Source: a virus
Taxonomy: Duplodnaviria; Heunggongvirae; Uroviricota; Caudoviricetes
IMG/VR virus record: IMGVR_UViG_2565956726_000012
Coordinates: 1-40,724 of that record
DNA: 40,724 nucleotides
Direction: 5' to 3' (one strand)
Shown here piece by piece: positions 2,698-34,057 of this stretch (positions are counted from its first letter, which is position 1; each line of letters starts with the position of its first letter). The translations under genes were made by a program, and so were the position numbers. The notes below the pieces were generated by a model. That model had not been told where the DNA came from. It did not search any database and saw nothing but the letters and a program-made list of their open reading frames with translations.

Positions 2698-3088
2698 CGT
2701 CTTTTCTCCCCGGAATTAACTCGCGTGGATTATCGGAACGGTGATAGAGCCAGATGCCAATACGCACGGCGACAATTGCTGACACGAATGCGCCTGCAGA
2801 GAAAACAATCCCTTTTTCAAAAGAGTCCTGCGTGATGGTAGGGATCAGGCTGGCTATGCCGATAAGAATTGATGCTGCTGGTTTGTAAAAGAGAAGGCCG
2901 CAAAGAAAGCTGAGCATCGACAGGAGCACCCGGCGACGGATGGGGTACTCTACTGCAGAGGTAACAAAAATTACCGCCCCAGCCAAAGCCCCTAAAGCAA
3001 CCTCCGGAGGGACACCTGCAATAACCGCAGCAAGAGAACTAACACTAAGCCACTGATTTGAAGTTTCATTGGTTAGTTGGAATGACAT
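2684..3088 (-). CDS. Putative holin
   Basis: 134 aa, multiple hydrophobic helices, charged C-terminus; first gene of lysis cassette immediately after tailspike. Confidence 0.55.
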   Translation of the reverse strand: MSFQLTNETSNQWLSVSSLAAVIAGVPPEVALGALAGAVIFVTSAVEYPIRRRVLLSMLSFLCGLLFYKPAASILIGIASLIPTITQDSFEKGIVFSAGAFVSAIVAVRIGIWLYHRSDNPRELIPGRKDDGNA

Positions 3089-3160
3089 AACGAAACCCGT
3101 TTATTTGCAAACACCCTGCTTCAGGAAAAGTATACCGCGCAACAACACACCATTTACGGT

Positions 3161-5779: not shown

Positions 5780-5799
5780 TACTGTATAAATATACAGTT
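5780..5799. promoter_or_regulatory. LexA (SOS) box TACTGTATAAATATACAGTT
   Basis: CTGT-N8-ACAG with AT-rich spacer and TA flanks, near-consensus; 20 bp upstream of ATG 5820. Confidence 0.7.
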
Positions 5800-6123: not shown

Positions 6124-6236
6124 ATTTACATCGCACTCCTCTTGTGCCATAGTAATCGGGCACTGGCAAAATCCAGTGCCGGGATTGGCGTCCCGAGTTA
6201 CTAAGTGGCGCATACCACGCCAGACGTGGTTTTTTT
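6116..6236 (+). ncRNA. Putative structured small RNA or leader element (c4/sar-like antirepressor control RNA) ending in an intrinsic terminator
   Basis: No ORF; hairpins GGCACTGG/CCAGTGCC (6159-6180) and CGGGA/TCCCG (6180-6195); terminator at 6214-6236; lies between a strong promoter and the ant gene. Confidence 0.35.
6214..6236 (+). terminator. Rho-independent terminator upstream of ant
   Basis: Stem ACCACG/CGTGGT, loop CCAGA, followed by 7 T. Confidence 0.65.
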
Positions 6237-6392
6237 ATGCGTTAAGCACAGCTATATCCGAATTATGGTGGGCTGGGCAGGGGTCCGAAAGGACGCCGGT
6301 ACCACTTAGGCCGGTACGCCAACCTTGTCCAGTTCACCACCAGTAATTGGCGTTGCGGTGGTGATTAAAATCACTAAGTGGAGATAACCACC

Positions 6393-7103
6393 ATGGCTAA
6401 TGCTCAAACTGCCATCTTCAAATTTGAATCTGTTAACCCTATCCGTTCCATCATTATCGATGGCCAACCATGGTTTGTAGCCCAAGACGTTTGTAGTGCG
6501 CTGCGCATCCAAAACGTCACCCAAGCACTTGAAAAACTGGATGATGATGAAAGGTCTATGTTCAACATAGGGCATGAATATCGTGCAATTTTTGACAGCC
6601 GAGTAAAAGAGATCAACATCATCTCCGAGTCAGGCCTCTACACACTGATCCTCCGCTGCCGCGACGCAGTGACACCGGGCACTATCCCCTACCGCTTTCG
6701 TAAATGGGTTACAGGTGAGGTTCTTCCTCAGATCCGCCGCACCGGAAGTTACATTAAAAACTCGCTCCCGCAGGAAGAACGCATAAAGATGGTTGCCGAC
6801 CAGGTTGCAAACGCCACAGCATCAGCAGTGATGCAGGCAATGAAGATAGAGAACAAAACCTACAGCGCCCCGCTGAAGCCCGGCTACCGCAGCCTGATTC
6901 ATTCTCCGTCTGGTGTTCTCGGCCTGACGGAGAACTCATTGCTGATGAATCTGCTGAATCAGTTGCAGGACGACGGGCATGATGTATCGGGCGCGGCGGC
7001 GGAGCTGACCACCATGTTTTGCTACATCGTTGGTGTGAGCAAATGCCTGCGTGATATCCAGACGCACGCGGAGTACATCAACGACAAGGCAGGGTTCTTC
7101 TGA
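6393..7103 (+). CDS. ant: Antirepressor, Bro-N N-terminal domain plus ANT-like C-terminal domain
   Basis: Bro-N-like N-terminus (FKFESVNPIRSIIIDGQPWFVAQDVCSALRI); GGAG RBS 9 nt before ATG 6393; the GTG at 6378 in the track is an unlikely start. Confidence 0.8.
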   Translation: MANAQTAIFKFESVNPIRSIIIDGQPWFVAQDVCSALRIQNVTQALEKLDDDERSMFNIGHEYRAIFDSRVKEINIISESGLYTLILRCRDAVTPGTIPYRFRKWVTGEVLPQIRRTGSYIKNSLPQEERIKMVADQVANATASAVMQAMKIENKTYSAPLKPGYRSLIHSPSGVLGLTENSLLMNLLNQLQDDGHDVSGAAAELTTMFCYIVGVSKCLRDIQTHAEYINDKAGFF

Positions 7104-20652: not shown

Positions 20653-21645
20653 TTACACCACACGGGCTTCTGTTTCCAGAAGCGCATCAGTTTCACGGAT
20701 TGGTACACCACGGAATGAAGTCCACCACTCGCCTTCTGTCTCTTTTACGCTGATCGCCAGAGATGTTTTCTCCAGAGATTGCAGATCAAGAGCCTGGCCT
20801 ACAGTGCGGTTCATGTAGAACACCGGGCGACCCATTCCACGGTTTGGAATGCGATGCAGTGCTTTAACCATCAACTTCGCAATATTTGCGGCAGAGGAAG
20901 GTTCTGAAAGATTGCTGACATCGATGTTTGCAATGCGAACAACATAACGCCAGTCACGCAGAGCAAGTCCGTTGTCCCATTTGTAATGGGTGCGATAGCC
21001 TTCGTACTTGCCGCCATTAGCATCTTCCAGTGTCACCTGGCCTTTATCTTCCATCTGGATGCCAGCCTTCTGCCCTTTCGGGAAGATGCCATGCACGGTG
21101 TTTTCGCCCCACACCACTAACCAGATTGAGGTGTTATCTGTACCCGTGCCACCAGCATCAATGATGTTCTGAGCATTACCCGCAGACAGGCTGGAATAGC
21201 GGGAGGACAGTCCCATAAACTGCTGAGGGTTAACGCTGGAATCACCATAAAACAGTGTCTGCGCCATCTGCTGATTCATCGCTTCAATAAATGCGCGGTC
21301 TTCAGACAGGCGGAATTCGGCGGTATTACCGTTCAGATCAGCCAGTGACTTATCGACTTCAGCATAGGTTTCCAGCATGCCAACGGAATCGGTGACCTGC
21401 ACTGTGGTTGATTTGCTTGGCTGTACACCATAGTTCAGCAAACGCCAGGTAGCTGAAGGTAAACCAGAACGAATGGTGGTTCGGTGTCCGGTAGGAAGGT
21501 TCCCTTCGACAAAAGGCATATCCTGAAGGATCGGGTTAGTTTGACCGAGAAGCTCGATAATCTTATCGACTTTCCCGTTTGGATCGACGCGCTTACCCCA
21601 GTCAGCCAGCGTTAGCGCAGTTAAGCCTTTAACAGCCATTGTCAT
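20653..21645 (-). CDS. Major capsid protein
   Basis: 330 aa directly after scaffold gene; position and size; followed by stem-loop. Confidence 0.7.
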   Translation of the reverse strand: MTMAVKGLTALTLADWGKRVDPNGKVDKIIELLGQTNPILQDMPFVEGNLPTGHRTTIRSGLPSATWRLLNYGVQPSKSTTVQVTDSVGMLETYAEVDKSLADLNGNTAEFRLSEDRAFIEAMNQQMAQTLFYGDSSVNPQQFMGLSSRYSSLSAGNAQNIIDAGGTGTDNTSIWLVVWGENTVHGIFPKGQKAGIQMEDKGQVTLEDANGGKYEGYRTHYKWDNGLALRDWRYVVRIANIDVSNLSEPSSAANIAKLMVKALHRIPNRGMGRPVFYMNRTVGQALDLQSLEKTSLAISVKETEGEWWTSFRGVPIRETDALLETEARVV

Positions 21646-22355: not shown

Positions 22356-22648
22356 TCCTGTTCACTGGCCTCTTTGGCCATCTTCAAATACTGTTCAGGG
22401 CAATGCGCCATAACGCGCTGAAACAGTTCCAGCGCCAGATTGCGTTGCCCCTCATTAAATGCCATTGCCATAGCGTCCATCGGTGAGATAGCGGAAAACA
22501 CACGGCCTTTCTCCAGCACCGACCAGACAACGCGACGCCCCTGTTCACTGCTCATGACAAAGCGAATGTCATCAATTTCACGCTGTGCCATGTCACGTTG
22601 CTTACGGGCGTTTTCTTCTTTCAGTTGATCGTCTTCGTAATCTGTCAT
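22352..22648 (-). CDS. Hypothetical head-module protein
   Basis: 98 aa; translationally coupled to portal (ATGA overlap). Confidence 0.45.
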   Translation of the reverse strand: MTDYEDDQLKEENARKQRDMAQREIDDIRFVMSSEQGRRVVWSVLEKGRVFSAISPMDAMAMAFNEGQRNLALELFQRVMAHCPEQYLKMAKEASEQE

Positions 22649-24324
22649 TGTGATTGCCCACCCTGACCACTAACTGCATTCGCCATAGCTGACAAAACAC
22701 TCGGATCCGAAGTTTTAGCTTCGCTTAGCGTCTTGGCACCCTGTGCCGCCGCCATCCCCATCGCCATCATTTGTTGCTGCTGTTGTTGCTGTGCCCGTTG
22801 CTGGCGAGCCTGCTCAACCTGTTCCTGCGGAACAATGACGGTTGGAGACACTCCGGACATATCAGCGAATGCATCGATCGCCTGATCAACGTTGAGTTTG
22901 TCGAGAGCTTCTGGTTTCGCTTGCGCAAGTTGACCAATGAAGTTAACCGTGGACGCCAGACTGGACAGGCCGATAGACTTCTGCGCCTGAGCCATGACGG
23001 AAATGTATTCGACCTTCAGGGGCATACCTTCCATCGCGTCAGGCGGTGGCGGCAGCATGTTTTTACGCACCATCATCGAGAAAGCGCGGTCAATGAGAGG
23101 GTTAAGACATTCGTCGTTCAGACGCTCCAGAACCGGCCCCAACATCAGAAGTTTTTCTTCTTTCATTTCGATCACCGCTTCAACAGGCATCGAGCGGGTA
23201 TTGATGTTCTGCAACATCATGAACAGATCGACAAAGTAGGCGCTGTTAATGATTTGACGAGTGTCCTGAATGTCTGCTACCAGATCTGCTGTACTGGGGT
23301 TAACCAGATAAGCAGGCCTGAAACCATCCTGACCAGTAATCTGATCGATATACGTGATGTCGCCAGGAAGAAGGGAGGCGCGCTGATTCTTGAGGGAAGT
23401 CGGAGCAACCATCGGCGGATTGGTGGCTTTATCAATCAACTGCGACTTGCGCTTCTGGAGAAGCTGCAATGCCTTAACAGGTCCAAGCGCCAGCATACCC
23501 GGGCATGATGATCCATAAACATCTTCGCCATTAACTTCCCAGCGCGGAGCCATAATTGGAAACTCATCAAATCCGGACTCACGCAACAACTTGTCGTTAT
23601 CGCCACCAACCTCGTAATAAACCGATTTGAATGGCTTGTTCTTGCTATCCAGCTTCGATGTATCGCGGTCAATGTTCGGGTAAACCGAATGCATCACGTC
23701 AATCCACTTCTCGTAGGTGCCGCTTTCCCACATGCTTTTTACGGATTCGCTGACGTTATTTAGCCCGAACTCCTGAACAAGCTGACGAACAGTCATAGAG
23801 AACTTGCGAAAACAGGTGTCCACACTGCCACGAGGTGAGTTAGCCAGGTAGTAACTGCCTATCGGGAATGGCATTGTGCGAATGATGTCCTCGTCATCCT
23901 CCAGCACCGCCATTGCACCAGTGCTGTATGTGCCGAGGCTTCCGTATAACTGCGGAAGAGACTGGTAGAGATTCGACTTATTGAACATATCGTTCATGCG
24001 GTTCTGCACCGCCTCGAGCCACAACTTAACAGGACCATAATCCATCATTTCAGGATCTGGCGTAGCCAGGCGAAACCACGGACGCGCAGGGCTTGTGATG
24101 CCTGACATCATGCCGCTGGCGAGAGTGCGCGCCGCCATAGTCCCGGTCGAATCAATAATGCGTGTATTGCGTCGATCGTTACGGTTGACCTCAGAAGTCA
24201 GAAAGCGGGAACCACGCGGGTTGATGTAATCACTCAACTCGCGCCAGTGCGGCTCGAACGACTGACGCTCGCTTTCAAGTTGTGCGAACTGTTTGTTCAA
24301 TCGCTCTTTAGTTGTTTCCGCCAT
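22645..24324 (-). CDS. Portal protein
   Basis: 559 aa; position after terminase; poly-Q C-terminal tail; GGAG RBS 8 nt upstream. Confidence 0.8.
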   Translation of the reverse strand: MAETTKERLNKQFAQLESERQSFEPHWRELSDYINPRGSRFLTSEVNRNDRRNTRIIDSTGTMAARTLASGMMSGITSPARPWFRLATPDPEMMDYGPVKLWLEAVQNRMNDMFNKSNLYQSLPQLYGSLGTYSTGAMAVLEDDEDIIRTMPFPIGSYYLANSPRGSVDTCFRKFSMTVRQLVQEFGLNNVSESVKSMWESGTYEKWIDVMHSVYPNIDRDTSKLDSKNKPFKSVYYEVGGDNDKLLRESGFDEFPIMAPRWEVNGEDVYGSSCPGMLALGPVKALQLLQKRKSQLIDKATNPPMVAPTSLKNQRASLLPGDITYIDQITGQDGFRPAYLVNPSTADLVADIQDTRQIINSAYFVDLFMMLQNINTRSMPVEAVIEMKEEKLLMLGPVLERLNDECLNPLIDRAFSMMVRKNMLPPPPDAMEGMPLKVEYISVMAQAQKSIGLSSLASTVNFIGQLAQAKPEALDKLNVDQAIDAFADMSGVSPTVIVPQEQVEQARQQRAQQQQQQQMMAMGMAAAQGAKTLSEAKTSDPSVLSAMANAVSGQGGQSQ

Positions 24325-24338
24325 TTCAATGACTCCGG

Positions 24339-24545
24339 TTACTGACCAAGCAGCGTTTTACCGCTGGTATTAGCGGTTGATGTGTCGCCCTGAGAACCGG
24401 TAAGCAGCGTAGAACTACGACCAGCAGCAGCGCGACGGCGACGTGTTTCTTCGTCGCGGGCATCAACAACGGCGGCATCCTGCTCCTGTGGTGCTGCCTG
24501 AACTTCTGGTGTTGCAGGCACTGATGGTGAGCTACCCATGCACAT
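24339..24545 (-). CDS. Small low-complexity ORF upstream of portal (hypothetical)
   Basis: GGAG RBS; its initiation region TCAATGACTCCG is duplicated in front of portal; coding status uncertain. Confidence 0.3.
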   Translation of the reverse strand: MCMGSSPSVPATPEVQAAPQEQDAAVVDARDEETRRRRAAAGRSSTLLTGSQGDTSTANTSGKTLLGQ

Positions 24546-24604
24546 ATCAATGACTCCGTACGCAATTAAATTATTACCAATTTAACCACATATGATTTAT
24601 TTAT

Positions 24605-24641
24605 CGTAGAAGGTTGACATTTAACGCGTGAATTATTACCT
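24605..24641. promoter_or_regulatory. TTGACA -35-like element plus operator copy C (TTACCTTTCAGGTAA)
   Basis: Identical 15-bp core to copy A; lies between portal-side operon and the tRNA island. Confidence 0.5.
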
Positions 24642-24972
24642 TTCAGGTAACTAAAGAGCTCATTCTGGTTACTAACCTGACTGGCTTGTCGTTAAATTAA
24701 ACAGGTGGAGTGAGCTTTTATTTTGAGCAGTACGGCGTATGGCACATGCGCCGATAGCGGTCTGGATACGTTTAAGGGGCACCCTCCCTTGCTCGGGCAA
24801 ACGAACCAGGTAGCCGGAATGTGCAAGTCGAGCGGTTTTATTCCGCGCACGGGGATTCACCATCCCGGCGATTCGGTGTGACGCCTCGGAAGAGACGAGG
24901 GTACAACGATGAGAGCATTTATGGAGCCGCGACAAAGTGTGGCGCCTTAACAGGCTAAGTGCTCTCAGCGTT

Positions 24973-25049
24973 GTGGCATTAGCTCAGTCGGACAGAGCAA
25001 CCGCCTTCTAAGCGGTTGGTCGCAGGTTCGAATCCTGCATGCCACGCCA
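24973..25049 (+). tRNA. tRNA-Arg (anticodon UCU), phage-borne
   Basis: 77 nt cloverleaf: 7-bp acceptor stem GTGGCAT/ATGCCAC, D-arm GCTC..GAGC, anticodon loop CTTCTAA, T-arm GCAGG-TTCGAAT-CCTGC, discriminator G plus CCA; closely resembles argU-type tRNA. Confidence 0.9.
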
Positions 25050-25092
25050 GAATCACGCCTAAGGACCGTGATGCCAGAAGTTCCAGGGGCTT

Positions 25093-25134
25093 GGCGGTGA
25101 TGGTTTCCCTTGAAGAACTATCACCGCCCTTTTT
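25093..25134 (+). terminator. Rho-independent terminator after tRNA
   Basis: Stem GGCGGTGAT/ATCACCGCC followed by CTTTTT. Confidence 0.55.
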
Positions 25135-25179
25135 ACAGCAGGACGCCATTGCGATGACTTCATGCTGTAAACCAGTACA

Positions 25180-25203
25180 GCCCGGTTCGCCGGGCATTTT
25201 TTT
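25180..25203 (+). terminator. Rho-independent terminator
   Basis: Stem GCCCGG/CCGGGC with TTCG loop followed by ATTTTTTT. Confidence 0.7.
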
Positions 25204-25214
25204 AAGGTGAGATC

Positions 25215-25637
25215 ATGAAAACAGCCGACATGCTAGCTAAATATCTAAATGAATGGCCGTGCAAATATGTACGCATTGTTCAGGGTGATGACTCAATTTT
25301 TTATGGTGTTTTTGCAGGAAATGAAATGCTTTGTGAAGCAATTCCAGGTGAGCGACTTGCCGGGTTAACGCTTAGCGATGACCATGGAATAGGAGTTACT
25401 TGCCATGACTGGATTTCAGCGCAGAAAACTGAAATGGAAAAAGGCAATGTGTTTGATATTTCTCGCGCTGTATACGCCAAAGAAAAAAGTGATGATGATT
25501 ACATGCGCGAAAACTTATACAACATGAAGTTACAATGCCTGGCTGAAGTGCTTAGTAAAAGATCTTTACTTGATGTGGTTGGTGCTGAGCAGGACGCCAA
25601 GGCAATCAACGCCGCATTCGATAAAATAACCTTCTAA
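25215..25637 (+). CDS. Hypothetical protein (140 aa) in the plus-strand island between portal and terminase
   Basis: AAGGTGA RBS 5 nt before ATG; convergent with terminase; flanked by terminators. Confidence 0.6.
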   Translation: MKTADMLAKYLNEWPCKYVRIVQGDDSIFYGVFAGNEMLCEAIPGERLAGLTLSDDHGIGVTCHDWISAQKTEMEKGNVFDISRAVYAKEKSDDDYMRENLYNMKLQCLAEVLSKRSLLDVVGAEQDAKAINAAFDKITF

Positions 25638-25641
25638 CACC

Positions 25642-25653
25642 GTGACATGTCAC
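25642..25653. repeat. Palindrome GTGACATGTCAC (copy 2)
   Basis: Exact 12-bp palindrome 5 nt after the stop at 25637. Confidence 0.8.
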
Positions 25654-25657
25654 AAAC

Positions 25658-25686
25658 AGCCAGCCGATGAGCTGGCTTTGTTTTAT
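25658..25686 (+). terminator. Rho-independent terminator in convergent intergenic region
   Basis: Stem AGCCAGC/GCTGGCT, loop CGATGA, followed by TTGTTTTAT. Confidence 0.65.
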
Positions 25687-25727
25687 CCTCATCAGAGGAT
25701 ATCAACGACATTATCCCCACCAGCGGA

Positions 25728-27203
25728 TTAAGCATACGGGTCATAATCTGTGATGGCCTTGCCTTGCTGGTTCTGCTGCCCAGGAATTCGCAGACGCTTC
25801 GACACAGGGAAAGCAAACGTCAGCAGTAGCGCATCGCCTTTACCCGGCGAACGCCCAAGCCGCTCCTTGATATCTTCCTTCGGTTCGATAACGATTTTAC
25901 CGTCCACACGAACTTTGTACTCTGCCGCTGACAGGTCGTCTGCAGTTTCCTGGTCATCCAGCATGCCGCCCAGCCTCAGCCATGTCTTACATGAGTTGAA
26001 CATCTCCCCACGCTTGTTAAGCATCTGCGGGTCAGTGGACGCACCGCCGAACGGAACAAGTTGCCATGTACGTCCCCAGCCATCACCGATTGACTTCAAA
26101 CCGGTTCCGTAACCGAAGTCGATGAACACCGCGTCAGCCTGATACTGGTCTTCAAAGTCAGCGATACGCTTCGCCATAATCAGATCGTCGGTGGTCTTGT
26201 TACCAGTCCATAGCACCTTACTGTGCAGCCCCTGCCGCAGGTATATCACCGCGTCATCAACGCCTGAGTATGCCGGGTCAACGCCGATTATCACCGGAGC
26301 ATGTGCAACCTGCGCAGCGGTTACCACCCGTTTCATTGCCTCATCAGTAAGACCGGTAGGGATAAACTGCAATTCAGATGCATCAGGGAATATGCCGCGC
26401 ACACGGATTTTAACGAAGTCGCTATCTTCCCCGTAGTCATCAACCCATTTCTGCAACTGCTGTTTGTTAGTGCCTTCCACCGTCCGGCTGTCAATCTGCG
26501 CAGTTTTCCAGCGGTGTTTATATTTGCGGAAACATTCGCGGAAACGCCCGGTGTTACGTGTAGGGTTTCCGAACGCTACCCAGATAATCTCAGTGTCTTC
26601 GTCCGTAAGCGCACCCTCAGCAACTTCCCACACCAGATCCGCAATGTTCGACGCTTCATCGAATACCACGATGATGCGTTTGCGCTCGTTGTGTAGTCCG
26701 GCGAACGCCTCAGTGTTGTGCTCAGACCAGGGGATTGCGTCAGCTCGCCACCGCTTGTCGTGCCCAGGGTCATTGCTGTACATCGCGGTAGCGGTACAGG
26801 TAAACCAGTCTTTCGTGATAGCAAGGTTTGACCACTTGATAATTTCCGGCCAGGTCTTCGTTCGTAGCTGGTTGTCGGTGTTGGCGGTCACCACGACCTT
26901 ACAATCCTCGCAAGTGGACATGCCCCAGTTGATCAGCATTGAGATGAATGCGGATTTACCAATACCGTGACCAGAAGCACGTGCCAGCATAAGCGGCTGA
27001 TATCGCGTCTCTGGATTCTGCAGGTGATCACGTATCTCTCGGAACGCATCAGCCTGCCACTGACGTGGGCCGGTAGCATGTGCCAGTTCAGTCCCTTCTT
27101 CCCCCCACGGGAACGCATAGAGGGCATAGCCAAGCGGATCGTGAGTGAACCCTGCAATATCCTCGATCAACTGCTCTTCAGGAGATAACGCTGTATCTGT
27201 CAC
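25728..27203 (-). CDS. terL: Terminase large subunit
   Basis: Walker A-like ARASGHGIGKSAF; ATPase plus nuclease architecture; 4-bp overlap with small subunit. Confidence 0.9.
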   Translation of the reverse strand: MTDTALSPEEQLIEDIAGFTHDPLGYALYAFPWGEEGTELAHATGPRQWQADAFREIRDHLQNPETRYQPLMLARASGHGIGKSAFISMLINWGMSTCEDCKVVVTANTDNQLRTKTWPEIIKWSNLAITKDWFTCTATAMYSNDPGHDKRWRADAIPWSEHNTEAFAGLHNERKRIIVVFDEASNIADLVWEVAEGALTDEDTEIIWVAFGNPTRNTGRFRECFRKYKHRWKTAQIDSRTVEGTNKQQLQKWVDDYGEDSDFVKIRVRGIFPDASELQFIPTGLTDEAMKRVVTAAQVAHAPVIIGVDPAYSGVDDAVIYLRQGLHSKVLWTGNKTTDDLIMAKRIADFEDQYQADAVFIDFGYGTGLKSIGDGWGRTWQLVPFGGASTDPQMLNKRGEMFNSCKTWLRLGGMLDDQETADDLSAAEYKVRVDGKIVIEPKEDIKERLGRSPGKGDALLLTFAFPVSKRLRIPGQQNQQGKAITDYDPYA

Positions 27204-27796
27204 TGATTGCCATCCTGACGTTCTTTCAGTCTCTTCCTGGCTGCCGCTATGCGATCAGCAATTGTCACATTCACATTAACATCCAGGCGTTCTTTGAACG
27301 CGTTGACATCAACATGCTTACCAATCAGCTCAAGGTTCTTCACCTTGTCAGGCCATTTAATTTTTTTGAGGATTGTCTCTATCGAATCCTCGTTCATGTT
27401 CATGATGGTCGATGACAGATCAAAGCCGCTAAGCGTAGTGCGCCAGATTTTCGGCCACTCGCGGATTGGTTTAAGGCTCCCATCGTCGTTGAGGATGTCG
27501 ATCACGTCCATCTGGTCGATCTCCACCAGGCGCATGAGAACGTAATCAGCACTGACGCGCATTCGTTTGTTGCGCTCCTCCATCAACTCGGCAATCCGTT
27601 TTTGAATGCGTTCATCGCGCATCATGACACTGGCTTTAACTGCCGCTGTATTTGGGGAGAATCCTGCGTTAATCGCTGCCTGAGTCTGGTTTTCAGGCGT
27701 TTTGATGTATGACTGGCAATAAGCCTCCTGCATTGCTGTTAGTGGCTTAAATTGCGTTGATTTGCGTTTATAGGTTTTAGGTTCAGCAGGCATCAT
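27200..27796 (-). CDS. terS: Terminase small subunit
   Basis: Conserved LTAMQEAYCQSYIKTPENQTQAAINAGFSP region; start at ATGATG 27796/27793; track extension to 27874 crosses a terminator hairpin. Confidence 0.8.
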   Translation of the reverse strand: MMPAEPKTYKRKSTQFKPLTAMQEAYCQSYIKTPENQTQAAINAGFSPNTAAVKASVMMRDERIQKRIAELMEERNKRMRVSADYVLMRLVEIDQMDVIDILNDDGSLKPIREWPKIWRTTLSGFDLSSTIMNMNEDSIETILKKIKWPDKVKNLELIGKHVDVNAFKERLDVNVNVTIADRIAAARKRLKERQDGNQ

Positions 27797-27813
27797 AACC
27801 ACCGTGGTAATTG

Positions 27814-27828
27814 TTACCGTTGTGGTAA
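27814..27828. promoter_or_regulatory. Operator copy J (TTACCGTTGTGGTAA) in the terminase upstream region
   Basis: On the minus strand preceded by TATTAT, the same -10-abutting arrangement as other copies. Confidence 0.5.
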
Positions 27829-27840
27829 TAATACCATGCA

Positions 27841-27866
27841 AAATAAAGCCGCCATAGTTGGCGGCA
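27841..27866 (-). terminator. Rho-independent terminator just upstream of terminase genes (tR-prime-like)
   Basis: Stem GCCGCC/GGCGGC with 6-nt loop; on minus strand followed by CTTTATTT. Confidence 0.5.
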
Positions 27867-27906
27867 GTATTCAAAATCCATCAAATTCATCATGCATAAT
27901 CTACTC

Positions 27907-27918
27907 GTGACATGTCAC
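27907..27918. repeat. Palindrome GTGACATGTCAC (copy 3)
   Basis: Exact 12-bp palindrome overlapping the stop codon of the zinc-ribbon protein gene. Confidence 0.8.
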
Positions 27919-28253
27919 ACTATTAATTTCGTTTCATGCCAGCCTTTAGTCACCCAGCATTGCGAGTCACCATTACACGGGCATGAATTAACTGGAACTC
28001 TCTCGCCGCACTTACCGCAACGTTTTCTGCTGATCGATTTTATACGCCCGCGCACACGTGCATCATCCTGGCGGATCAGTAACGCTATATACTCACCAAA
28101 TTCGTAAGGCGCACGCCCGGGGCGACGCGTGGCACAGTTACGCTCCAGCATTTCAATTTCCTGAGCATCAAGCACAATTTCCAGCTTACGCACACCAGAT
28201 GCAGCTTGTCTGGCTCTCTGAGCGGCTTTGCGCTCTGCTGCTGATTTAGCCAT
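27915..28253 (-). CDS. Small protein with C-terminal zinc-ribbon (candidate late-gene regulator)
   Basis: C-terminal CGKCG...CPC...C cysteine cluster; AAGGT RBS; immediately upstream of terminator and terminase. Confidence 0.5.
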   Translation of the reverse strand: MAKSAAERKAAQRARQAASGVRKLEIVLDAQEIEMLERNCATRRPGRAPYEFGEYIALLIRQDDARVRGRIKSISRKRCGKCGERVPVNSCPCNGDSQCWVTKGWHETKLIV

Positions 28254-28288
28254 CAATATTTACCTTTATCGCGAACACCTTTACCGGT

Positions 28289-28531
28289 TTATCTCCTTTG
28301 CATGGCACGTAATTTTTTCAGATGGTTCTCCTGTTCTGTTTCAGCCAGGATCTGGTGATATTCTCTGTGATCAATGTGTTCGAATAAATTATTGAATTTT
28401 CTGATGCACACCCTTCCAGGATAGCCATCCATCCTCTTGAAGAACACTGAGTGATCAGTACTACGAATGATTTTTACTGGATAGCCAGCACTATCGGTGT
28501 ATATCTGCCCGCGTTGAATCAAAGCGAACAT
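28289..28531 (-). CDS. Hypothetical protein
   Basis: GGGGA RBS before internal ATG 28531; track ORF begins with TTG at 28567. Confidence 0.4.
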   Translation of the reverse strand: MFALIQRGQIYTDSAGYPVKIIRSTDHSVFFKRMDGYPGRVCIRKFNNLFEHIDHREYHQILAETEQENHLKKLRAMQRR

Positions 28532-28615
28532 GTGGTTATCCCCATCGACAAATCGAGTACACAACAAACGCTACTGCGAATACCATCCCCAGAGTTACGA
28601 TTGCATCAGGCCAGC

Positions 28616-29359
28616 TCATTGATTCACCTCCTGCGGCGGTTCTGGCAGCGGCATCCAGTGGGTTGCCTGCTCAATACCATTACCCGGCTTAATCGTTGCT
28701 TGTCCTCGCCGAAAGGTACTTCCGGTATAGCGTGCGGAGCATATTAGCGGCTCAACCAGATCACTATCGAAATTCACCGAAATAAGTACGTTCTGATTCT
28801 TTTTCGGCATTCGCTCACTACAGCTTATCCAACCATCCGGAGTTACCGGATAGTTGCCAGCCAGTCTACGCAAAACAGCCTTAATTGCATCAATACGGTC
28901 ATCATCAACTTTTTCTACAATATTGGAATTTAAATACTTCGAAGCCTTGCTATGCCAATCGCTGGTTTTAGGGTCTTGTCCATCCATCAAACGCCAAGCT
29001 TCAGCGATTAACTCATAGCCAGTAACAGTGGCTTCCTGCGCATCACCAATCAGTTGTGTGATCTCTCTTTCAAGCATGCTTAGAGCGTTAGGCATTGGTT
29101 TTTCTTCCGGTACTACTGGAACGGGGGGAGCGGCGTAGACCTCAATAATTCCATTATCAATAGGCCATTCTCCATCCTTGAGGTAGTCACTTGTGCCGTC
29201 AACTTGCTGTTCTGCAATGTGGAATGCACCTATTGGTTTTGCTTCCAGCGATGCCAGAGCAATTTCATAAGCACGGCGCTCAATATTGTCTCTCACATCC
29301 AGGCTACCTATGCGCTCTTTGATTTCTTTAATCAGTTCTTTGTCGGTTAAAGTGGTCAT
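28616..29359 (-). CDS. DUF551-like phage protein
   Basis: C-terminal HWMPLPEPP motif characteristic of DUF551 proteins of enterobacterial prophages (from memory). Confidence 0.6.
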   Translation of the reverse strand: MTTLTDKELIKEIKERIGSLDVRDNIERRAYEIALASLEAKPIGAFHIAEQQVDGTSDYLKDGEWPIDNGIIEVYAAPPVPVVPEEKPMPNALSMLEREITQLIGDAQEATVTGYELIAEAWRLMDGQDPKTSDWHSKASKYLNSNIVEKVDDDRIDAIKAVLRRLAGNYPVTPDGWISCSERMPKKNQNVLISVNFDSDLVEPLICSARYTGSTFRRGQATIKPGNGIEQATHWMPLPEPPQEVNQ

Positions 29360-29565
29360 TTGTTAATCCTCAAAACTTTATGCCCGGGCGCAAAAGCACG
29401 CGTTTTGTCTTTGCTTATTCGCCAGCCATCCTTGCGCGCCTCTTTTGCACAGCCAGCCCATGACGTACCTATATACTCACCGAAGTCTGGCGACTTATAT
29501 TTGCCATCTGTACACTGGAGGCAATCACAATAGAGATGCATGGTGTAACTTGCAGCGATAGCCAT
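29356..29565 (-). CDS. Hypothetical small Cys-rich protein
   Basis: AGGAG RBS 8 nt before ATG 29565; coupled to downstream gene. Confidence 0.4.
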   Translation of the reverse strand: MAIAASYTMHLYCDCLQCTDGKYKSPDFGEYIGTSWAGCAKEARKDGWRISKDKTRAFAPGHKVLRINK

Positions 29566-29566
29566 A

Positions 29567-29755
29567 TCACTCTCCTTTAGTGCGCAAGTGGTTTTTCCAG
29601 CGGTTTTGCGCCGCGCTGGGCTTTTTGCAAAAACCACAATCCATCATCCCGTAATATTTCATCAACCCCATCCGTCGGTTGCTGAGTCTCACCCACTGCC
29701 AGACGCCAGGAGCGTTTCTACGAACTAACAGAATCTTTGCTTTACGGTTTTTCAT
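29567..29755 (-). CDS. Hypothetical small basic protein
   Basis: AGGAG RBS; overlaps stop of upstream Ea22-like gene; coding status uncertain. Confidence 0.3.
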   Translation of the reverse strand: MKNRKAKILLVRRNAPGVWQWVRLSNRRMGLMKYYGMMDCGFCKKPSAAQNRWKNHLRTKGE

Positions 29756-30473
29756 CGCTTTGCTCTCCTGCATCTCCTTTGGTGCGAATTCCAGCGGCGC
29801 GTGGCACATTAACTTCCACGATGCGCACAGTTGGTTTGTACATCTCAATCGCAGTCAGCCAGTCAGCGCCAGTCATGCGCTTTTCTGCATCGCCATTAGT
29901 CCACTTAACCGGTACACCAATAGCCTTCATCGCGATTTCTATTTCCCCGGCAATGGCGCTTTTTCCGCAACCAGTAAAACCAGATACAACGACCAGAACT
30001 TCACCTTTGGCTGGTTTTATTTCCCGCGCTTCCAGTTCTGCTATGCGCTTACTTCCATCCGAGATAACACCTTCGTAATACTCGCGCTGCTCGTTGAGTT
30101 TTGATTTTGCTGCTTCAAGCTCAACGCGCAGCTTCCCAACCGTAAGCGCAATATCCTCGTTCTCCTGGTCACGGCGTTTGATGTATTGCTGGTTTCTTTC
30201 CCTTTCATCCAGTAGTGCCAGCACGGTAGCTGGATTGGCTGCGGCGATGAATTCAGCATTGGCCTGCTGTTCCATTTGGAAATCTTCATAGAAACGGCTT
30301 TCTGGATGCGCTCCTTCAATTCTGCAAATAGGAATATATCCAGCAACCTCGCGATGAATTAGTGCATCATCACCATCAAATCGTCCCTCTCCATATTCGA
30401 GCGACCACACACCACACGTTGCTTTCTCTGCCTTTTCACGCAGTGCCTGATAGTCAATTGTCATTCTCGCCAT
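29742..30473 (-). CDS. Ead/Ea22-like protein
   Basis: N-terminal MTIDYQALREKAEKAT..WS and central coiled-coil resemble the Ea22 family of lambdoid prophages. Confidence 0.65.
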   Translation of the reverse strand: MARMTIDYQALREKAEKATCGVWSLEYGEGRFDGDDALIHREVAGYIPICRIEGAHPESRFYEDFQMEQQANAEFIAAANPATVLALLDERERNQQYIKRRDQENEDIALTVGKLRVELEAAKSKLNEQREYYEGVISDGSKRIAELEAREIKPAKGEVLVVVSGFTGCGKSAIAGEIEIAMKAIGVPVKWTNGDAEKRMTGADWLTAIEMYKPTVRIVEVNVPRAAGIRTKGDAGEQSDEKP

Positions 30474-31105
30474 CCTTCACAGTTGTAATCACTACAGCCT
30501 TCAAAATCATATGGGCTGTACTGCCAGGTTATTTTTCCGCAATGCGGACAATTCCAACGCACCTTCCCGCTTCGCGACTTCTTTCTTCTGTTCTGCTCTT
30601 TCAACCAGTCAGGCATGACCAAACCTGCGCCCTGAACCATTGTTCTGCGGTTAAAGTTATTGATATTGAACGTCCGGCGCTTTGCTGCATCAGCAATGGA
30701 AAATGGCAACCAAACTATTCCTGGTTCGTTTTTGTTGGCGACGCTAAAGATGGTCGCTTTACTGAAGTCATCTGTTGGCAATCCACCGTGTTGAAGCCAG
30801 TAAACATCGTTGCCGTTCCAGCTGCCTTTTTTGTAGGCCACATACGCAGTGCAATCTGACTCAATCAGGCTTTCTGTAGGGATGTACTGGCAATCAACGT
30901 GCCACACAGCCATTGCATCCACACTATCGGCACAAACAGGCTGATCGATATCTCGCCCACAATTCCAGGCTTTTTGGGCTTCTTCCAGCGTGTAAACATG
31001 AGCGCGATCGATATCAGAACTGTAACCATTGCCGTTATGGCAATGGAATGAAGCGTTATTACCCACAGTTTCACGCAAGCACATCATGTAAAAGCGGTTA
31101 TTCAC
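30461..31105 (-). CDS. Hypothetical protein with C-terminal CPHC zinc-ribbon
   Basis: 214 aa, operon context among lambdoid accessory genes. Confidence 0.5.
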   Translation of the reverse strand: MNNRFYMMCLRETVGNNASFHCHNGNGYSSDIDRAHVYTLEEAQKAWNCGRDIDQPVCADSVDAMAVWHVDCQYIPTESLIESDCTAYVAYKKGSWNGNDVYWLQHGGLPTDDFSKATIFSVANKNEPGIVWLPFSIADAAKRRTFNINNFNRRTMVQGAGLVMPDWLKEQNRRKKSRSGKVRWNCPHCGKITWQYSPYDFEGCSDYNCEGWRE

Positions 31106-31409
31106 TGGCTGCCTCCTTTGCTGGGCTTTCTAACTTCTGAGTGGTTGTATCAAACTCAAACAACTTAACCACGTCATCAAACAGGACATAATCGCCATCA
31201 GAATCTTCAGTCATGTCAGCGCCACAATCCTGACCGAACGAGTCACAACCATCCATATCAAGCTCGTATCGCTTGAGTTTTGCGATATTTGATAAATTCA
31301 GCGCCAGTACAGCAAGGTCATAAACCTCATCAGCGGTATACCCGGCACCATGCCCATACATTTCAATACGGGATATGATTTCTTCTACACGTTGTTTTGT
31401 GATCGTCAT
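31098..31409 (-). CDS. Hypothetical acidic protein
   Basis: 103 aa, overlapping neighbours. Confidence 0.5.
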   Translation of the reverse strand: MTITKQRVEEIISRIEMYGHGAGYTADEVYDLAVLALNLSNIAKLKRYELDMDGCDSFGQDCGADMTEDSDGDYVLFDDVVKLFEFDTTTQKLESPAKEAASE

Positions 31410-31411
31410 TT

Positions 31412-31936
31412 TTACTCACCTTCCTGTTCTTCCAGAAAAATACGCATAGCCTCAAGCATCTCTTCGGTGTCATACGGTGACAACTTGTCACGCAGGATGT
31501 GTTCAATGCTGTTAATGAACTTGCGGATTGCTTTGCGTTCAATTTCAGCCAGAAAAGCATCGGTGGCTGGAGTTTCGCTGTGGTGCAGGGCATCGTTGAT
31601 AATCATTGCAGCAACTCCGGCCTGCCCTGCATCCGTGACCGACACATGCTCAAGAGTTACAGCCATTGCATGTTTCAGCCCCGCATTCTCCGCTGCCAGC
31701 GCCGAAAACTTCTCGTGTGCCAACTTAACAGCTGCATCAGCCTGCTTAATTGACTCAATCGCTTTCTGCTGGTCTTCGGCCAGCGCATTAGCACGCACCA
31801 GTTGCACTTCCAGTTGCGTTGCCAAATCGCTGATCAGCTTTGCCACACTGCGCATATCAACGGCACCACATTCTGCTTTCAGTTCCGAAGCCATCTCATG
31901 CCCGGCGGCAACTAACCCTTTGATATTACTTTCCAT
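31412..31936 (-). CDS. Hypothetical coiled-coil protein
   Basis: 174 aa, Ala-rich helical. Confidence 0.5.
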   Translation of the reverse strand: MESNIKGLVAAGHEMASELKAECGAVDMRSVAKLISDLATQLEVQLVRANALAEDQQKAIESIKQADAAVKLAHEKFSALAAENAGLKHAMAVTLEHVSVTDAGQAGVAAMIINDALHHSETPATDAFLAEIERKAIRKFINSIEHILRDKLSPYDTEEMLEAMRIFLEEQEGE

Positions 31937-31997
31937 CTTTACCCTCGCTTATCCACATAACTTATTGATAACATTGATAACTAAAAAGATCGTCGAT

Positions 31998-32342
31998 TCA
32001 GAACTCTTCGATGATCCAGCCACCACCTGCTTTCTTTGGTTTAACCGTTACCCCGATGATTCGGAACGGATACTGATCTGCGGCGACTTTGGTTTTCACC
32101 CTGGCGTCGTCGGTCCAGAAACCTTTCACTTCGTGCAGTTCCATCTCGCCGGTGGCGAGCATCACAGCAAAATCGGGCGTATAGAACGTGTTGTCAGCTA
32201 ACCGCAGCTTGATACCCTCAAATCGATACCAGACGATTTCTCCTGCACGTTTACGCAGCTCAAGGTGCTGGCAATACGCAGATTCTGTTTTGTTCATCTG
32301 ACCTGTTTTGAGTCGACCAAGAGCCTGTATCTGTTTTCTCAT
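31998..32342 (-). CDS. DUF1064-type PD-(D/E)xK nuclease (possible resolvase-like)
   Basis: Motif YTPDF ...(x)... LHEVKG consistent with a PD-(D/E)xK catalytic core. Confidence 0.55.
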   Translation of the reverse strand: MRKQIQALGRLKTGQMNKTESAYCQHLELRKRAGEIVWYRFEGIKLRLADNTFYTPDFAVMLATGEMELHEVKGFWTDDARVKTKVAADQYPFRIIGVTVKPKKAGGGWIIEEF

Positions 32343-32345
32343 GAT

Positions 32346-32429
32346 TTACCTCTGAGGTAATTAAAAACCACATAAGACACGAAATCAATAGATTTTAGAA
32401 TATTTTATTACCTAACAGGTAATTGTCGA
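32346..32429 (-). promoter_or_regulatory. Minus-strand promoter (TCGACA-16-TAAAAT) with operator copies D (32346-32360) and E (32408-32422)
   Basis: Copy E lies in the spacer, copy D in the 5-prime UTR 4 bp before ATG 32342. Confidence 0.55.
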
Positions 32430-32459
32430 GACGTAAAAAAATGCGCTATCGCGCTGGTA

Positions 32460-33260
32460 TTACTTGATAAATCCTGCCGCCTTTCCCCGCCTGTATTCCT
32501 CCATCAGCCACTGCGCCGGTGTTATTCCCCCAAGGGTGGCGGCGTTAGGCATGCACCCGAAACTTCGCCCTGGTGGATGGTAAACGTCTCTCCCTGTGTC
32601 CGGAGGCGTACTCATGGGCTCTGGCTTTGCCTGTATGCTGATCACCGGATCGGGTATCTGCTGTCCGGAAGCCACCTTTTTCGCCCAATCATCGAGCAGC
32701 CTGCGTGCGTGTTTCTCAACCTCAATCTCGCTAAGCTGGCGCTGATACATTGCACGGCGGGTATCACATACGACCCAGTACATAACCGGATGTCGCCACG
32801 GGAATCTTTCGGGACCACCAGGATATAAACTTTTTTCCTTGCTGTACCGGTGAAACTCCGCCATCACATCGTCAATGGTGACGCCAAGAACCATCTTGCT
32901 GTCTTTGCACCACTTGATAAATTGCCCTGGAGACGGCCAGAACGGAGATTCACTGGCGCGGGCGTGGCGCATACCAGCAGAAACCTGTTCACGGGTTCGG
33001 ATCCCCCCTTCGGCAAACGCAGCAATCCACTGCTGTTTTGCAGCAACTTCCTGCTCTGGCGTCTTCAGGTTGGTTACCACTGCCGCCGGAAACAGTTGTT
33101 TCAGCTGTTTAAAAAGGGCATCAACAAGCCTCTCTGCTGACATGTTCACCACATTGTCATTGTTGACGTACTGATGCTCATAACCTGACATGCGAGAAAG
33201 GGCTTCTCCGTCACGGTTTTGTATCGCGGTAAAAACGTTGTTCACAAGAAATCCTCCCAT
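32460..33260 (-). CDS. Replication protein P-like helicase loader
   Basis: Region QQWIAAFAEGGIRTREQVSAGMRHARASESPFWPSPGQFIKWCK aligns with lambda P as recalled. Confidence 0.75.
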   Translation of the reverse strand: MGGFLVNNVFTAIQNRDGEALSRMSGYEHQYVNNDNVVNMSAERLVDALFKQLKQLFPAAVVTNLKTPEQEVAAKQQWIAAFAEGGIRTREQVSAGMRHARASESPFWPSPGQFIKWCKDSKMVLGVTIDDVMAEFHRYSKEKSLYPGGPERFPWRHPVMYWVVCDTRRAMYQRQLSEIEVEKHARRLLDDWAKKVASGQQIPDPVISIQAKPEPMSTPPDTGRDVYHPPGRSFGCMPNAATLGGITPAQWLMEEYRRGKAAGFIK

Positions 33261-34057
33261 GCTTCAGGGCTGTTCCAGTGCGGAACGTTGTTATCAGGTA
33301 ATGTTGATTGCTTCTGTCTGCTAATCTGCAGCCGCCTTGCCAGCTTCTGCTCCCACTGTGCCTGATGGTATGCCTTACCCTCAGCCATCCAGTAAATTCT
33401 GAACTCTGCAAGTTCCTGTGCCGTTGGCAGACTGTCCAGGTAGATTCCCTGCAATGAGCTTTTCCGAAGAAAGTCATCTGATGGCTGCCATTGTTCATGC
33501 ATGACAAATTTACCTAATTGCCCTGGCCCACCAGGAGGAACAAAGTTATTCATCACGGCGTTGTTTGCGCCGGGGTCATGAGGAACAGAATCCCCGGTTT
33601 TTGTCCTGCTCTCCCTCTCTTGGTTAAATGACTGGTTATATGACTGGTTCTGGATCCCGTTTTTGGGATCATTCAACATCCCGTTTTTGGGATCATTCAA
33701 CATCCCGTTTTTGGGTATATTCCCGTTTTCGGTAACATTACCGTTTTCGGGTTCATTGCCCCCCTCCCGGTTGCCTTTAATGTTCCCGTTTTTGGTTATA
33801 TTAAGAGAGAAAACCCGCACTCTTTTTGTCGCTCCCTTTCTCTCTCCGGTATCTGAAATAAGCCCCATTTTCATGAGCGATATAAGCCCGGCCTGCACGG
33901 TTTTTTTATTCAGGCAAGTGTCTTTAACGAGGCGTTCTATGCTGGGGTAGCAGAGGTTATATTCATCGGCTCTGTCAGCCATCGAGAGCAGTATGAGCTT
34001 TAATGATGAGCTACCTGGATCTGTCTCCCAGGCCCAATCTGTTGCATGTCTGCTCAT
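33242..34057 (-). CDS. Replication initiator O-like protein containing the iteron origin
   Basis: N-terminal winged-helix-like region; central Asn/Gly-rich amino-acid repeats encoded by DNA iterons. Confidence 0.7.
   Translation of the reverse strand: MSRHATDWAWETDPGSSSLKLILLSMADRADEYNLCYPSIERLVKDTCLNKKTVQAGLISLMKMGLISDTGERKGATKRVRVFSLNITKNGNIKGNREGGNEPENGNVTENGNIPKNGMLNDPKNGMLNDPKNGIQNQSYNQSFNQERESRTKTGDSVPHDPGANNAVMNNFVPPGGPGQLGKFVMHEQWQPSDDFLRKSSLQGIYLDSLPTAQELAEFRIYWMAEGKAYHQAQWEQKLARRLQISRQKQSTLPDNNVPHWNSPEAWEDFL
33653..33800. repeat. Replication origin iterons (about 6 copies of TCCCGTTTTTGGGAT-like repeat)
   Basis: Two exact 24-bp tandem units CATCCCGTTTTTGGGATCATTCAA plus degenerate copies at 18-24 bp period, inside the O-like gene. 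Confidence 0.75.

Follow-up and report, generated by a model that had tools for sequence, protein, structure and literature searches.

The DNA analysed here (the window) is the whole 40,724-nt stretch of the IMG/VR virus record IMGVR_UViG_2565956726_000012, which by sequence similarity is an epsilon15/phiV10-type phage (Uetakevirus). Our subject is a small plus-strand island in this genome and, in particular, an RNA element at positions 24727-24973 that runs up to a tRNA-Arg gene. The island's neighbours are, on one side, a 68-aa gp3-like gene (24339-24545) together with the gene for the portal, or head-to-tail connector (22645-24324), and, on the other, terL (25728-27203); all of these, like terS, are encoded on the minus strand. 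The features between terL and the gp3-like gene all lie on the plus strand: a leader, the tRNA, one small gene, and terminators. Escherichia phage vB_EcoP_PAS61 matches the whole of 24300-25800 at 99.9% identity, and phiV10, O157 typing phages 9 and 10, and TL-2011b match 70% of this region at 97% identity; all of them are epsilon15-type Uetakeviruses. An identical layout in the virion-derived genomes of PAS61, phiV10, and the two O157 typing phages shows the tRNA to be internal phage cargo. An earlier reading of the window (the original prediction) had placed the tRNA island inside the phage and antisense to its late genes, and on both points it was right.

A conserved structured RNA ahead of the tRNA gene

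The element at 24727-24973 is a member of a conserved family of structured RNAs that was previously unannotated. The original prediction had described a leader of about 330 nt; a leader does precede the tRNA, but it is not a passive one, as positions 24727-24973 hold a covariation-supported RNA that is shared with unrelated phages. Its 5´ domain (24727 to 24900, plus strand), defined by alignments, pair counts, and a covariance model, is about 175 nt long and comprises four helices and a pseudoknot. These are P1 (24733-24753), P2 (24757-24765 paired with 24806-24814), P4 (24852-24866), and P5 (24884-24900, with the loop GAAGAGA), while the pseudoknot joins 24858-24861 to 24875-24878. An invariant 19-nt strand, GGTAGCCGGAATGTGCAAG, extends over positions 24809-24827.

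This structure was tested on a MAFFT alignment of 26 diverse members, with controls in which the 3´ partners were slid by 1-3 columns. Over the 29 pairs of the 5´ domain, 96.5% of the alignment cells form standard pairs, as opposed to 27-50% in the slid controls, and 11 of the 29 pairs have changed on both sides. The covariation score is 0.282 (0.03-0.08 in the slid controls), and none of 500 shuffles reached the observed values. Counts for single pairs, taken over 116 unique sequences, show how complete some of these switches are. The pair 24737-24749 is G-C in 84 sequences and A-T in 30, 24763-24808 is T-A in 68 and C-G in 48, 24853-24865 is G-C in 30 and C-G in 83, and 24858-24878, which belongs to the pseudoknot, is C-G in 79 and A-T in 37. 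The plus strand also folds better than the minus strand, with z-scores of -4.7 and -2.9, respectively. RNAalifold proposes a further possible pairing between GGCACAT (24741-24747) and ATGTGC (24819-24824); both segments are invariant, and hence carry no covariation signal.

A covariance model of the 5´ domain, R1, has a single match in the window (24727-24916, 158 bits, E 3e-48). R1 detected full copies in Uetakevirus, lambdoid, P1-type, and SopranoGao contexts. The copy that it detected in epsilon15 is reduced, and two divergent members possess only the core formed by P4, the pseudoknot, and P5. No Rfam 15 family matched the window leader (24500-24972) or the mEp460 leader at E<=10, and the conserved strings of the element were not found in the papers searched, apart from primer-like chance matches. 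Two candidates from the literature were considered and set aside: svsR (PMC12803456), of 77 nt, comes from the 3´ end of cI, and the Pas sRNA described in a preprint is unrelated to the element.

A coding function was rejected. No reading frame is kept open across the 26 members, five of which have stops in all six frames, and the open reading frames (ORFs) annotated over the element in some records were judged spurious. Genes that overlie the structured RNA and are probably spurious include mEp460 gp37 (L005 2443-2811), mEp390_036 (L013 2011-2253), and an ORF at 1823-2113 of locus L012.

The family extends well beyond the Uetakeviruses. In a sensitive BLAST search, the region 24560-24975 showed about 77-83% identity to non-coding DNA of phages that are otherwise unlike this genus. 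In lambdoid phages (cdtI, mEp460, Stx2c-converting phages, 1720a-02, Stx2a_WGPS2, mEp390, and one Stenotrophomonas phage), the element lies on the same strand as the cI-type repressor gene, about 150 nt further downstream. In the P1, P7, D6, and SJ46 phages it is located between trnI and ban, and in Klebsiella phage SopranoGao it follows the lysis genes. At least 119 IMG/VR contigs and 24 GTDB species genomes contain the 19-mer GGTAGCCGGAATGTGCAAG; of these species genomes, 22 are from Enterobacterales and two are metagenome-assembled genomes labelled Bacillota. Of 5426 complete E. coli genomes, 1064 carry the element (24727-24972), at 965 chromosomal and 276 plasmid places, and it is annotated in none of them. 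Its orientation is always that of the downstream genes. No tRNA is found within 1.2 kb at about two-thirds of the 5´-domain loci. The carriers of the element, i.e., P1-like phages, Uetakeviruses, lambdoid phages, and Lastaviruses, have no obvious phage protein in common.

The lambdoid loci are especially informative about gene order. In cdtI and mEp460, the element begins about 15-30 nt past a predicted operator-bearing promoter, which itself follows the cI terminator. In cdtI, the cI stop codon and terminator are followed by TTGACA, 16 nt, and CATAAT with a palindromic operator, and then, after about 30 nt, by the 5´ domain and the modules P6 and P7 described below. Behind P7 come a long terminator hairpin with a T-run, a second long hairpin, and the first ORF. 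The arrangement in mEp460 is the same, with OL-like operator repeats, so that in these two phages one or two terminator hairpins stand before the first ORF. A simple terminator finder missed the long-loop terminators of the lambdoid loci, and these were read by eye. The first ORF on the PL side encodes an acidic protein that is not N-like and belongs to no Pfam family. In fact, no N-type arginine-rich protein was found downstream of the element by ORF families or Pfam, and the mEp460 record annotates a Q-like protein and no N. By its position, the element thus corresponds to nutL in lambda and to putL in HK022 and HK639.

Modules, signals, and cargo of the island

The 5´ domain is followed by helix P6, in which 24904-24919 (CAACGATGAGAGCATT) pairs with 24957-24973 (AAGTGCTCTCAGCGTTG) around a hypervariable insert. 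As MAFFT could not align the two registers of this helix, P6 was judged by folding each variant; 26 distinct variants were found, and in 16 of 16 that were folded the helix is kept at 13-16 bp. The insert ranges from about 30 to more than 250 nt among members, some of which carry a T-arm-like GGTTCGATTCC hairpin in it. The last base of P6 is also the first base of the tRNA, and this junction is exact in all Uetakevirus-type loci. In P1-type loci, a tRNA-Ile ends about 15 nt before the element.

The tRNA itself (24973-25049, plus strand) is a well-formed tRNA-Arg with the anticodon UCU, as the original prediction had stated. It is the only tRNA that ARAGORN calls in the window (anticodon tct), and it scores 73.3 bits with the Rfam tRNA model RF00005 (model positions 1-71), whose gathering score is 29. 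The acceptor stem is GTGGCAT/ATGCCAC, the discriminator base is G, and CCA is encoded. This tRNA was already known, being annotated in KP869107/8, MN187550, JQ691610, KC911856/7, and MK422448. Separately, 65 Synechococcus phage records matched the query, apparently through its tRNA part and most likely in the 90-95% identity band, which suggests an unusually conserved body of the phage tRNA-Arg(UCU) across very distant hosts.

With regard to codon use, the ORFs of the window contain 6.65 AGA and 3.37 AGG per 1000 codons. In E. coli K-12 the corresponding values are about 2 and 1, and a roughly threefold excess of AGA over the K-12 level fits codon supplementation. The AGA codons are concentrated in the ORFs of the early region (27915-34057) and in an 820-aa ORF (3161-5623), and there are none in the portal ORF or in a 330-aa ORF at 20653-21645. 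A tRNA made from an early promoter fits this distribution better than one supporting bulk late protein synthesis. The original prediction took the tRNA as reading rare AGA; AGA is indeed raised in the window, but the codons lie in the early ORFs and the 820-aa ORF and are absent from the portal gene.

The slot that holds the tRNA-Arg in the window is occupied by a tRNA-like module, P7, in the Uetakevirus Tyrion and in lambdoid members. A hairpin of the form ATCACG..CGTGAT (25052 to 25072, plus strand) behind this slot is common to tRNA-bearing and P7-bearing members (L049, L090, L129). P7 is closed by a helix of 9 bp, GTTGTGGTG with CACCACAAC. Its first hairpin, TGCGC-AGGCTGA-TGCGC, is conserved and is followed by a variable middle part; the last hairpin, GCCGG-AGATCAGCA-CCGGC, is also conserved and continues directly into the closing strand. 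The loop sequences, GCUGA and UCAGC, complement each other. Inspected by eye, this topology appears to resemble the acceptor/T-arm stack and the D-loop/T-loop elbow of a tRNA. P7 modules are not called by ARAGORN, nor by Rfam in the one member scanned, mEp460.

P7 is a separate and widespread RNA family in its own right. Its 25-nt core is present in at least 120 further IMG/VR contigs, most of them without the 5´ domain. The module (GTTGTGGTGAATGCGCAGGCTGATGCGC ... GCCGGAGATCAGCACCGGCCACCACAAC) was located in temperate and virulent enterobacterial phages (L005 2724-2870; L136 1500-1750; L137; L138 1501-1649; L163-L262). Virulent phages such as Magnus (Ackermannviridae) and nithesis (Schitoviridae) have it in ORF-poor regions, at about 90% conservation, and in some phages, P1-like ones included, it is found inside tRNA arrays. 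Tiny "hypothetical proteins" are annotated over P7, e.g., in Magnus and nithesis. At several loci (L165, L175, and L176; L137, L173, and L193), alternative conserved domains replace the 5´ domain ahead of P6/P7, two examples being GGGTAACAACGGGCATATCGCC...CCACGAAACGGAG and GGCGCACTGGCCCGGTGTGATTAATAATGGGC; there may thus be several alternative head domains.

Upstream of the element, a sigma-70 promoter on the plus strand can be predicted from TTGACA (24614-24619), a spacer of 17 nt, and TACCTT (24637-24642). Its -10 element is weak and fell below the threshold of a consensus scan, which listed no promoter; epsilon15 has the same predicted promoter arrangement. The palindrome TTACCTTTCAGGTAA (24636-24650) overlaps the predicted -10. 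It is one of 15 copies of TTACC-N5-GGTAA (with at most one mismatch) in the window, where 0.68 are expected, and none of 100 shuffles reached 15. The epsilon15 record, moreover, annotates a repressor site at the equivalent place. TTACC-N5-GGTAA is a genuine multi-copy operator that is dispersed in the manner of the C1 operators of phage P1. The operator-associated promoter region of the original prediction is thereby confirmed as to the operator, and the promoter itself is a prediction.

The operator sites are over-represented about 20-fold and scattered over the whole genome, with copies at 5496, 5728, 6109, 7177, and 24636 and further ones at 27814, 32346, 32408, 34739, 35451, and 35513. The copies at 27796 and 27814 overlap the 5´ end of the terS ORF (27200-27874). 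Such scattering would imply a many-operator regime like that of phage P1.

Downstream of the tRNA, three terminators and a gene were found on the plus strand, in keeping with the original prediction of two terminators and a 140-aa gene of unassigned function. Terminator T1 (hairpin 25093-25128, with a tail to 25134) has a 14-bp stem followed by CTTTTT and stands at a fixed offset in 19 of the Uetakevirus-type rows. T2 (hairpin 25180-25195, with a T-run to 25203) consists of GCCCGG-TTCG-CCGGGC and seven T, and is conserved in front of different cargo genes and in epsilon15. Its T-run ends 11 nt before the ATG of the 140-aa ORF, so any transcript of the cargo gene must pass a strong terminator. 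T3 (25658-25677) closes the island, and the phiV10 record annotates the same hairpin, on the other strand, as the terminator after terL. The order is constant in Uetakevirus-type loci: tRNA, hairpin, T1, T2, a single ORF no more than about 25 nt after T2, and T3. In epsilon15 (L006 2796-2913), most of the 5´ domain, P6, the tRNA, and T1 are deleted, and the promoter/operator, T2, and the downstream ORF are retained.

The cargo ORF of the window (25215-25637, 140 aa, phrog_4846) has 111 homologues, all of them hypothetical proteins from Enterobacteriaceae. It matches nothing in Pfam or PADLOC. An AlphaFold2 model (pLDDT 80, pTM 0.51) had no match in the PDB at E<=0.001; against viral predicted structures the best E was 1.0e-03, and all of the best matches are uncharacterised proteins. 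Among the Uetakevirus-type loci the gene at this place varies; besides the 140-aa family of the window, there are Phage_gp49_66 (PF13876), Tad2-like proteins (PF11195), coiled-coil proteins of 262-292 aa, and others. The 140-aa gene thus occupies a swappable cargo slot. Tad2-like proteins represent a Thoeris anti-defence family and are found in the slot in two different lineages; in Klebsiella and other relatives they stand behind the tRNA (L014 2691-3212; L099 2998-3294; L110 6079-6375). The company that it keeps in this slot suggests an accessory or anti-defence role for the 140-aa gene.

A CTGT-N8-ACAG sequence just upstream of the cargo gene (CTGTAAACCAGTACAG, 25165-25180) had been put forward as a possible weak LexA-like box. 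The core is present, but it is most likely a chance match: the window has two such sequences where 0.57 are expected, 13 of 100 shuffles give at least two, the spacer (AAACCAGT) is not AT-rich, and the aligned epsilon15 sequence (CTGTAAACCCGTAAGC) no longer has the second half-site. Elsewhere in the window, a near-consensus LexA box (CTGTATAAATATACAG, 5782-5797) lies amid the operator copies at 5496, 5728, and 6109, just upstream of two RNA genes recognised by Rfam, isrK (6160-6236, plus strand, 67 bits) and the C4 antisense RNA (6261-6344, plus strand, 66 bits). A 236-aa ORF (6393-7103) follows. The two RNAs point to an immI module of the P1/P7 type in an epsilon15-like phage, and the position of the box suggests SOS control of this immI-like (C4/antirepressor) region.

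Possible functions of the element

Taken together, the island is best explained as a repressor-controlled early accessory operon, composed of the promoter/operator, the modular structured RNA, the tRNA-Arg(UCU), T1, T2, the swappable cargo gene, and T3. As to what the RNA does in it, we tentatively favour the reading that the element is a cis-acting, put-like antitermination leader. While still nascent, the RNA would fold and act in cis on the host RNA polymerase that is transcribing it, in the manner of the HK022 and HK639 put RNAs, which suppress termination through the beta' zinc-binding domain; the polymerase would then pass T1 and T2 into the cargo gene. In lambdoid phages without N, the same action would carry the polymerase past the terminators between PL and the early-left genes. 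Cleavage by RNase P at the 5´ end of the tRNA would free the leader with a defined 3´ end at P6, and the freed tRNA would supply AGA decoding for the AGA-rich early genes. As put stays active without being tethered to the transcript (PMC9378689), such cleavage would be compatible with antitermination.

This proposal draws on the covariation and folding of the RNA, on its constant co-orientation with the downstream genes, and on its placement: it stands after predicted operator-bearing promoters, or in the C1-controlled ban operon, and before terminators and promoterless genes. A host target is indicated, since the carriers have no obvious phage protein in common. The Tad2 cargo of relatives fits a need for early expression.

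Several points weigh against cis antitermination. The promoters and start sites are predictions. R1 does not match the put regions of HK022 and HK639 (at most 1.2 bits with filters off), and the architecture of about 175 nt, with several helices and a pseudoknot, is unlike the two-hairpin put of about 70 nt (PMC9378689). Phage P1 has no terminator between the element and ban, and epsilon15 keeps T2 and the ORF despite the loss of most of the element and of the tRNA. A pure antiterminator would have no need of hypervariable inserts, tRNA-like modules, or close linkage to tRNAs, all of which fit a processed stable RNA equally well, and terminators right behind the RNA are also to be expected of a stand-alone RNA gene.

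These last points lead to the main alternative, possible if doubtful, in which one or more stable non-coding RNAs are processed from the element and act in trans. Cuts at the tRNA or the tRNA-like modules, made by RNase P and further enzymes of tRNA processing, would free the 5´ domain and the module RNAs, which may then bind a host factor, e.g., as a decoy for tRNA-targeting defence nucleases or as a sponge for an RNA-binding protein. A tRNA abuts the element in two independent arrangements (the tRNA-Arg at the end of P6, and the tRNA-Ile about 15 nt before the element in the P1 type), as a processed precursor would have it. P7, for its part, has an acceptor-like closing helix of 9 bp together with D-arm-like and T-arm-like hairpins whose loops are complementary, and it is found within tRNA arrays and in virulent phages that lack the 5´ domain. 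The T-arm-like GGTTCGATTCC hairpins in some of the hypervariable inserts, the terminators directly behind the element, the anti-defence family Tad2 among the neighbouring cargo, and the C4 homologue in the window, the C4 RNA of P1/P7 being released from its precursor by RNase P, can all be read in the same sense. However, the tRNA-likeness of the modules was judged by eye, with no call from ARAGORN or Rfam, the inserts have no obvious complementarity theme, and an RNA acting in trans does not require the strict placement after early promoters and before promoterless genes. The tRNA is more central still to a further view, in which the leader is a tRNA precursor or processing scaffold only, one that would aid the folding, processing, or stability of the phage tRNA, and the island, in line with the original prediction, is a codon-supplementation module. 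A genuine tRNA is indeed directly abutted by the element, and AGA, at 6.65 per 1000 codons, is enriched in early genes. Nevertheless, this view is unlikely: about two-thirds of the 5´-domain loci lack a tRNA within 1.2 kb, the lambdoid element heads the PL operon without any tRNA, Tyrion carries a non-tRNA module in the tRNA slot, and tRNA maturation leaves the conservation and covariation of the 5´ domain across contexts unexplained.

It is also conceivable, but quite unlikely, that the 5´ domain is a riboswitch or attenuator that senses a ligand or a tRNA and sets read-through of the downstream terminators. The domain is compact and pseudoknotted with invariant single-stranded segments, the possible pairing of GGCACAT (24741-24747) with ATGTGC (24819-24824) would compete with the top of helix P1, and terminators do follow. 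Nonetheless, 200-300 nt of other modules separate the domain from these terminators with no overlapping expression platform visible, phage P1 has no terminator after the element, and the gene contexts share no metabolic theme. Finally, the cassette-like movement between unrelated phages, with sharp borders at about 80% identity, might be taken as a sign that conservation acts on the DNA, as in a recombination site, a single-strand initiation site, or a mobile miniature element. This is very improbable, as the compensatory changes preserve strand-specific, G-U-tolerant helices, the plus strand folds better (z -4.7 vs -2.9), the orientation is fixed relative to promoters and downstream genes, and no terminal repeats were seen.

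If the antitermination proposal is extended to the whole family, 24727-24973 would represent a new, widespread, and modular phage RNA family, present in about one-fifth of complete E. coli genomes. Its 5´ domain would form a class of put-type antiterminators that is new in structure, works without a protein, and is unrelated to put, and its 3´ slots would take tRNAs or tRNA mimics that are processed by the tRNA maturation machinery. This composite picture is possible, but we regard it with some doubt. Were it true, there would be a second, unrelated class of put-type antiterminators that reprogram host RNA polymerase. To our knowledge, processive antitermination by RNA alone is limited to very few systems (put of HK022/HK639 and EAR in Bacillus), and expression of the early-left operon in lambdoid phages without N is largely unexplored. 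The element, which is absent from Rfam and present in about 20% of complete E. coli genomes, offers a ready test case, as it heads PL operons, ban of phage P1, and the tRNA island of epsilon15-like phages. The interchange of tRNA and tRNA-like modules at one slot also provides a handle on why phages keep such RNAs beside early and anti-defence genes. From a practical point of view, spurious "hypothetical proteins" annotated over the elements, e.g., mEp460 gp37 and the tiny ORFs in Magnus and nithesis, can be corrected.

Comparison with known systems

The closest functional parallel is put of HK022 (putL and putR) and HK639 (putL-like), a factor-independent nascent RNA of about 70 nt with two stem-loops (PMC9378689). 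Like put, the element stands just after a (predicted) early promoter PL and before terminators and early genes, in phages without an annotated N (cdtI and mEp460), and just behind pL the HK639 record has a feature annotated as "putL-like antiterminator RNA". As its carriers otherwise have no common features, host polymerase is indicated as the partner of the element as well. The element differs from put in its length of about 175 nt, its four helices and pseudoknot, the added P6 and module slot, and its presence in one copy per phage. By eye, the first hairpin of put (ACGGCGCG..CAUGCGUCGG) is similar to helix P1 (ACGGCGUAUGGCACAUGCGCCG), and HK639 also has the GGAAGAG of the P5 loop; these likenesses may serve as leads only. 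At the level of the covariance model, homology to put was rejected (R1 gives at most 1.2 bits). The put regions of HK022 and HK639 contain no near-matches to the conserved motifs of the element, and the by-eye pattern ACGGCG..CATGCGYCG is not specific, with many unrelated matches in viral contigs. The HK639 record also annotates an "M3-like RNA" after a cII-like gene (L265 37910-37969).

C4 (RF01695) is a phage regulatory RNA derived from an operon leader, as the element may be, and RNase P releases the C4 RNA of P1/P7 from its precursor. The window carries a C4 homologue at 6261-6344, but C4 has no sequence or model similarity to 24727-24973 and acts by antisense pairing on the ant operon. 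A likeness to boxA, with the consensus (C/T)GCTCTT(T)A, can be seen in the 3´ strand of P6, which reads GTGCTCT(C/T).. in most members (TGCTCTCA in the window, TGCTCTTT in others), and the transcripts are largely untranslated, as in rRNA and tRNA operons. In the element this strand is variable and base-paired within P6, covaries away from the consensus in some members, and is accompanied by neither boxB nor an N gene. A perfect rrn-type boxA (TGCTCTTTAACAA) was observed in locus L170 (about 3000-3160), between a promoter-like sequence and P7.

Two other comparisons concern RNAs that keep company with tRNAs. GOLLD and ROOL are large structured RNAs encoded by phages, often beside tRNA genes. 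The element has no Rfam match to either, and it is smaller, modular, and, as far as found, limited to Enterobacterales. Phage-encoded tRNA genes, which serve codon supplementation or replace tRNAs hit by defence systems, are represented here by a canonical tRNA-Arg(UCU) in a phage whose AGA use is above that of its host. Unlike typical phage tRNAs, this tRNA is an interchangeable module of a larger conserved RNA, placed under an operator-controlled predicted early promoter and ahead of a slot for cargo genes.

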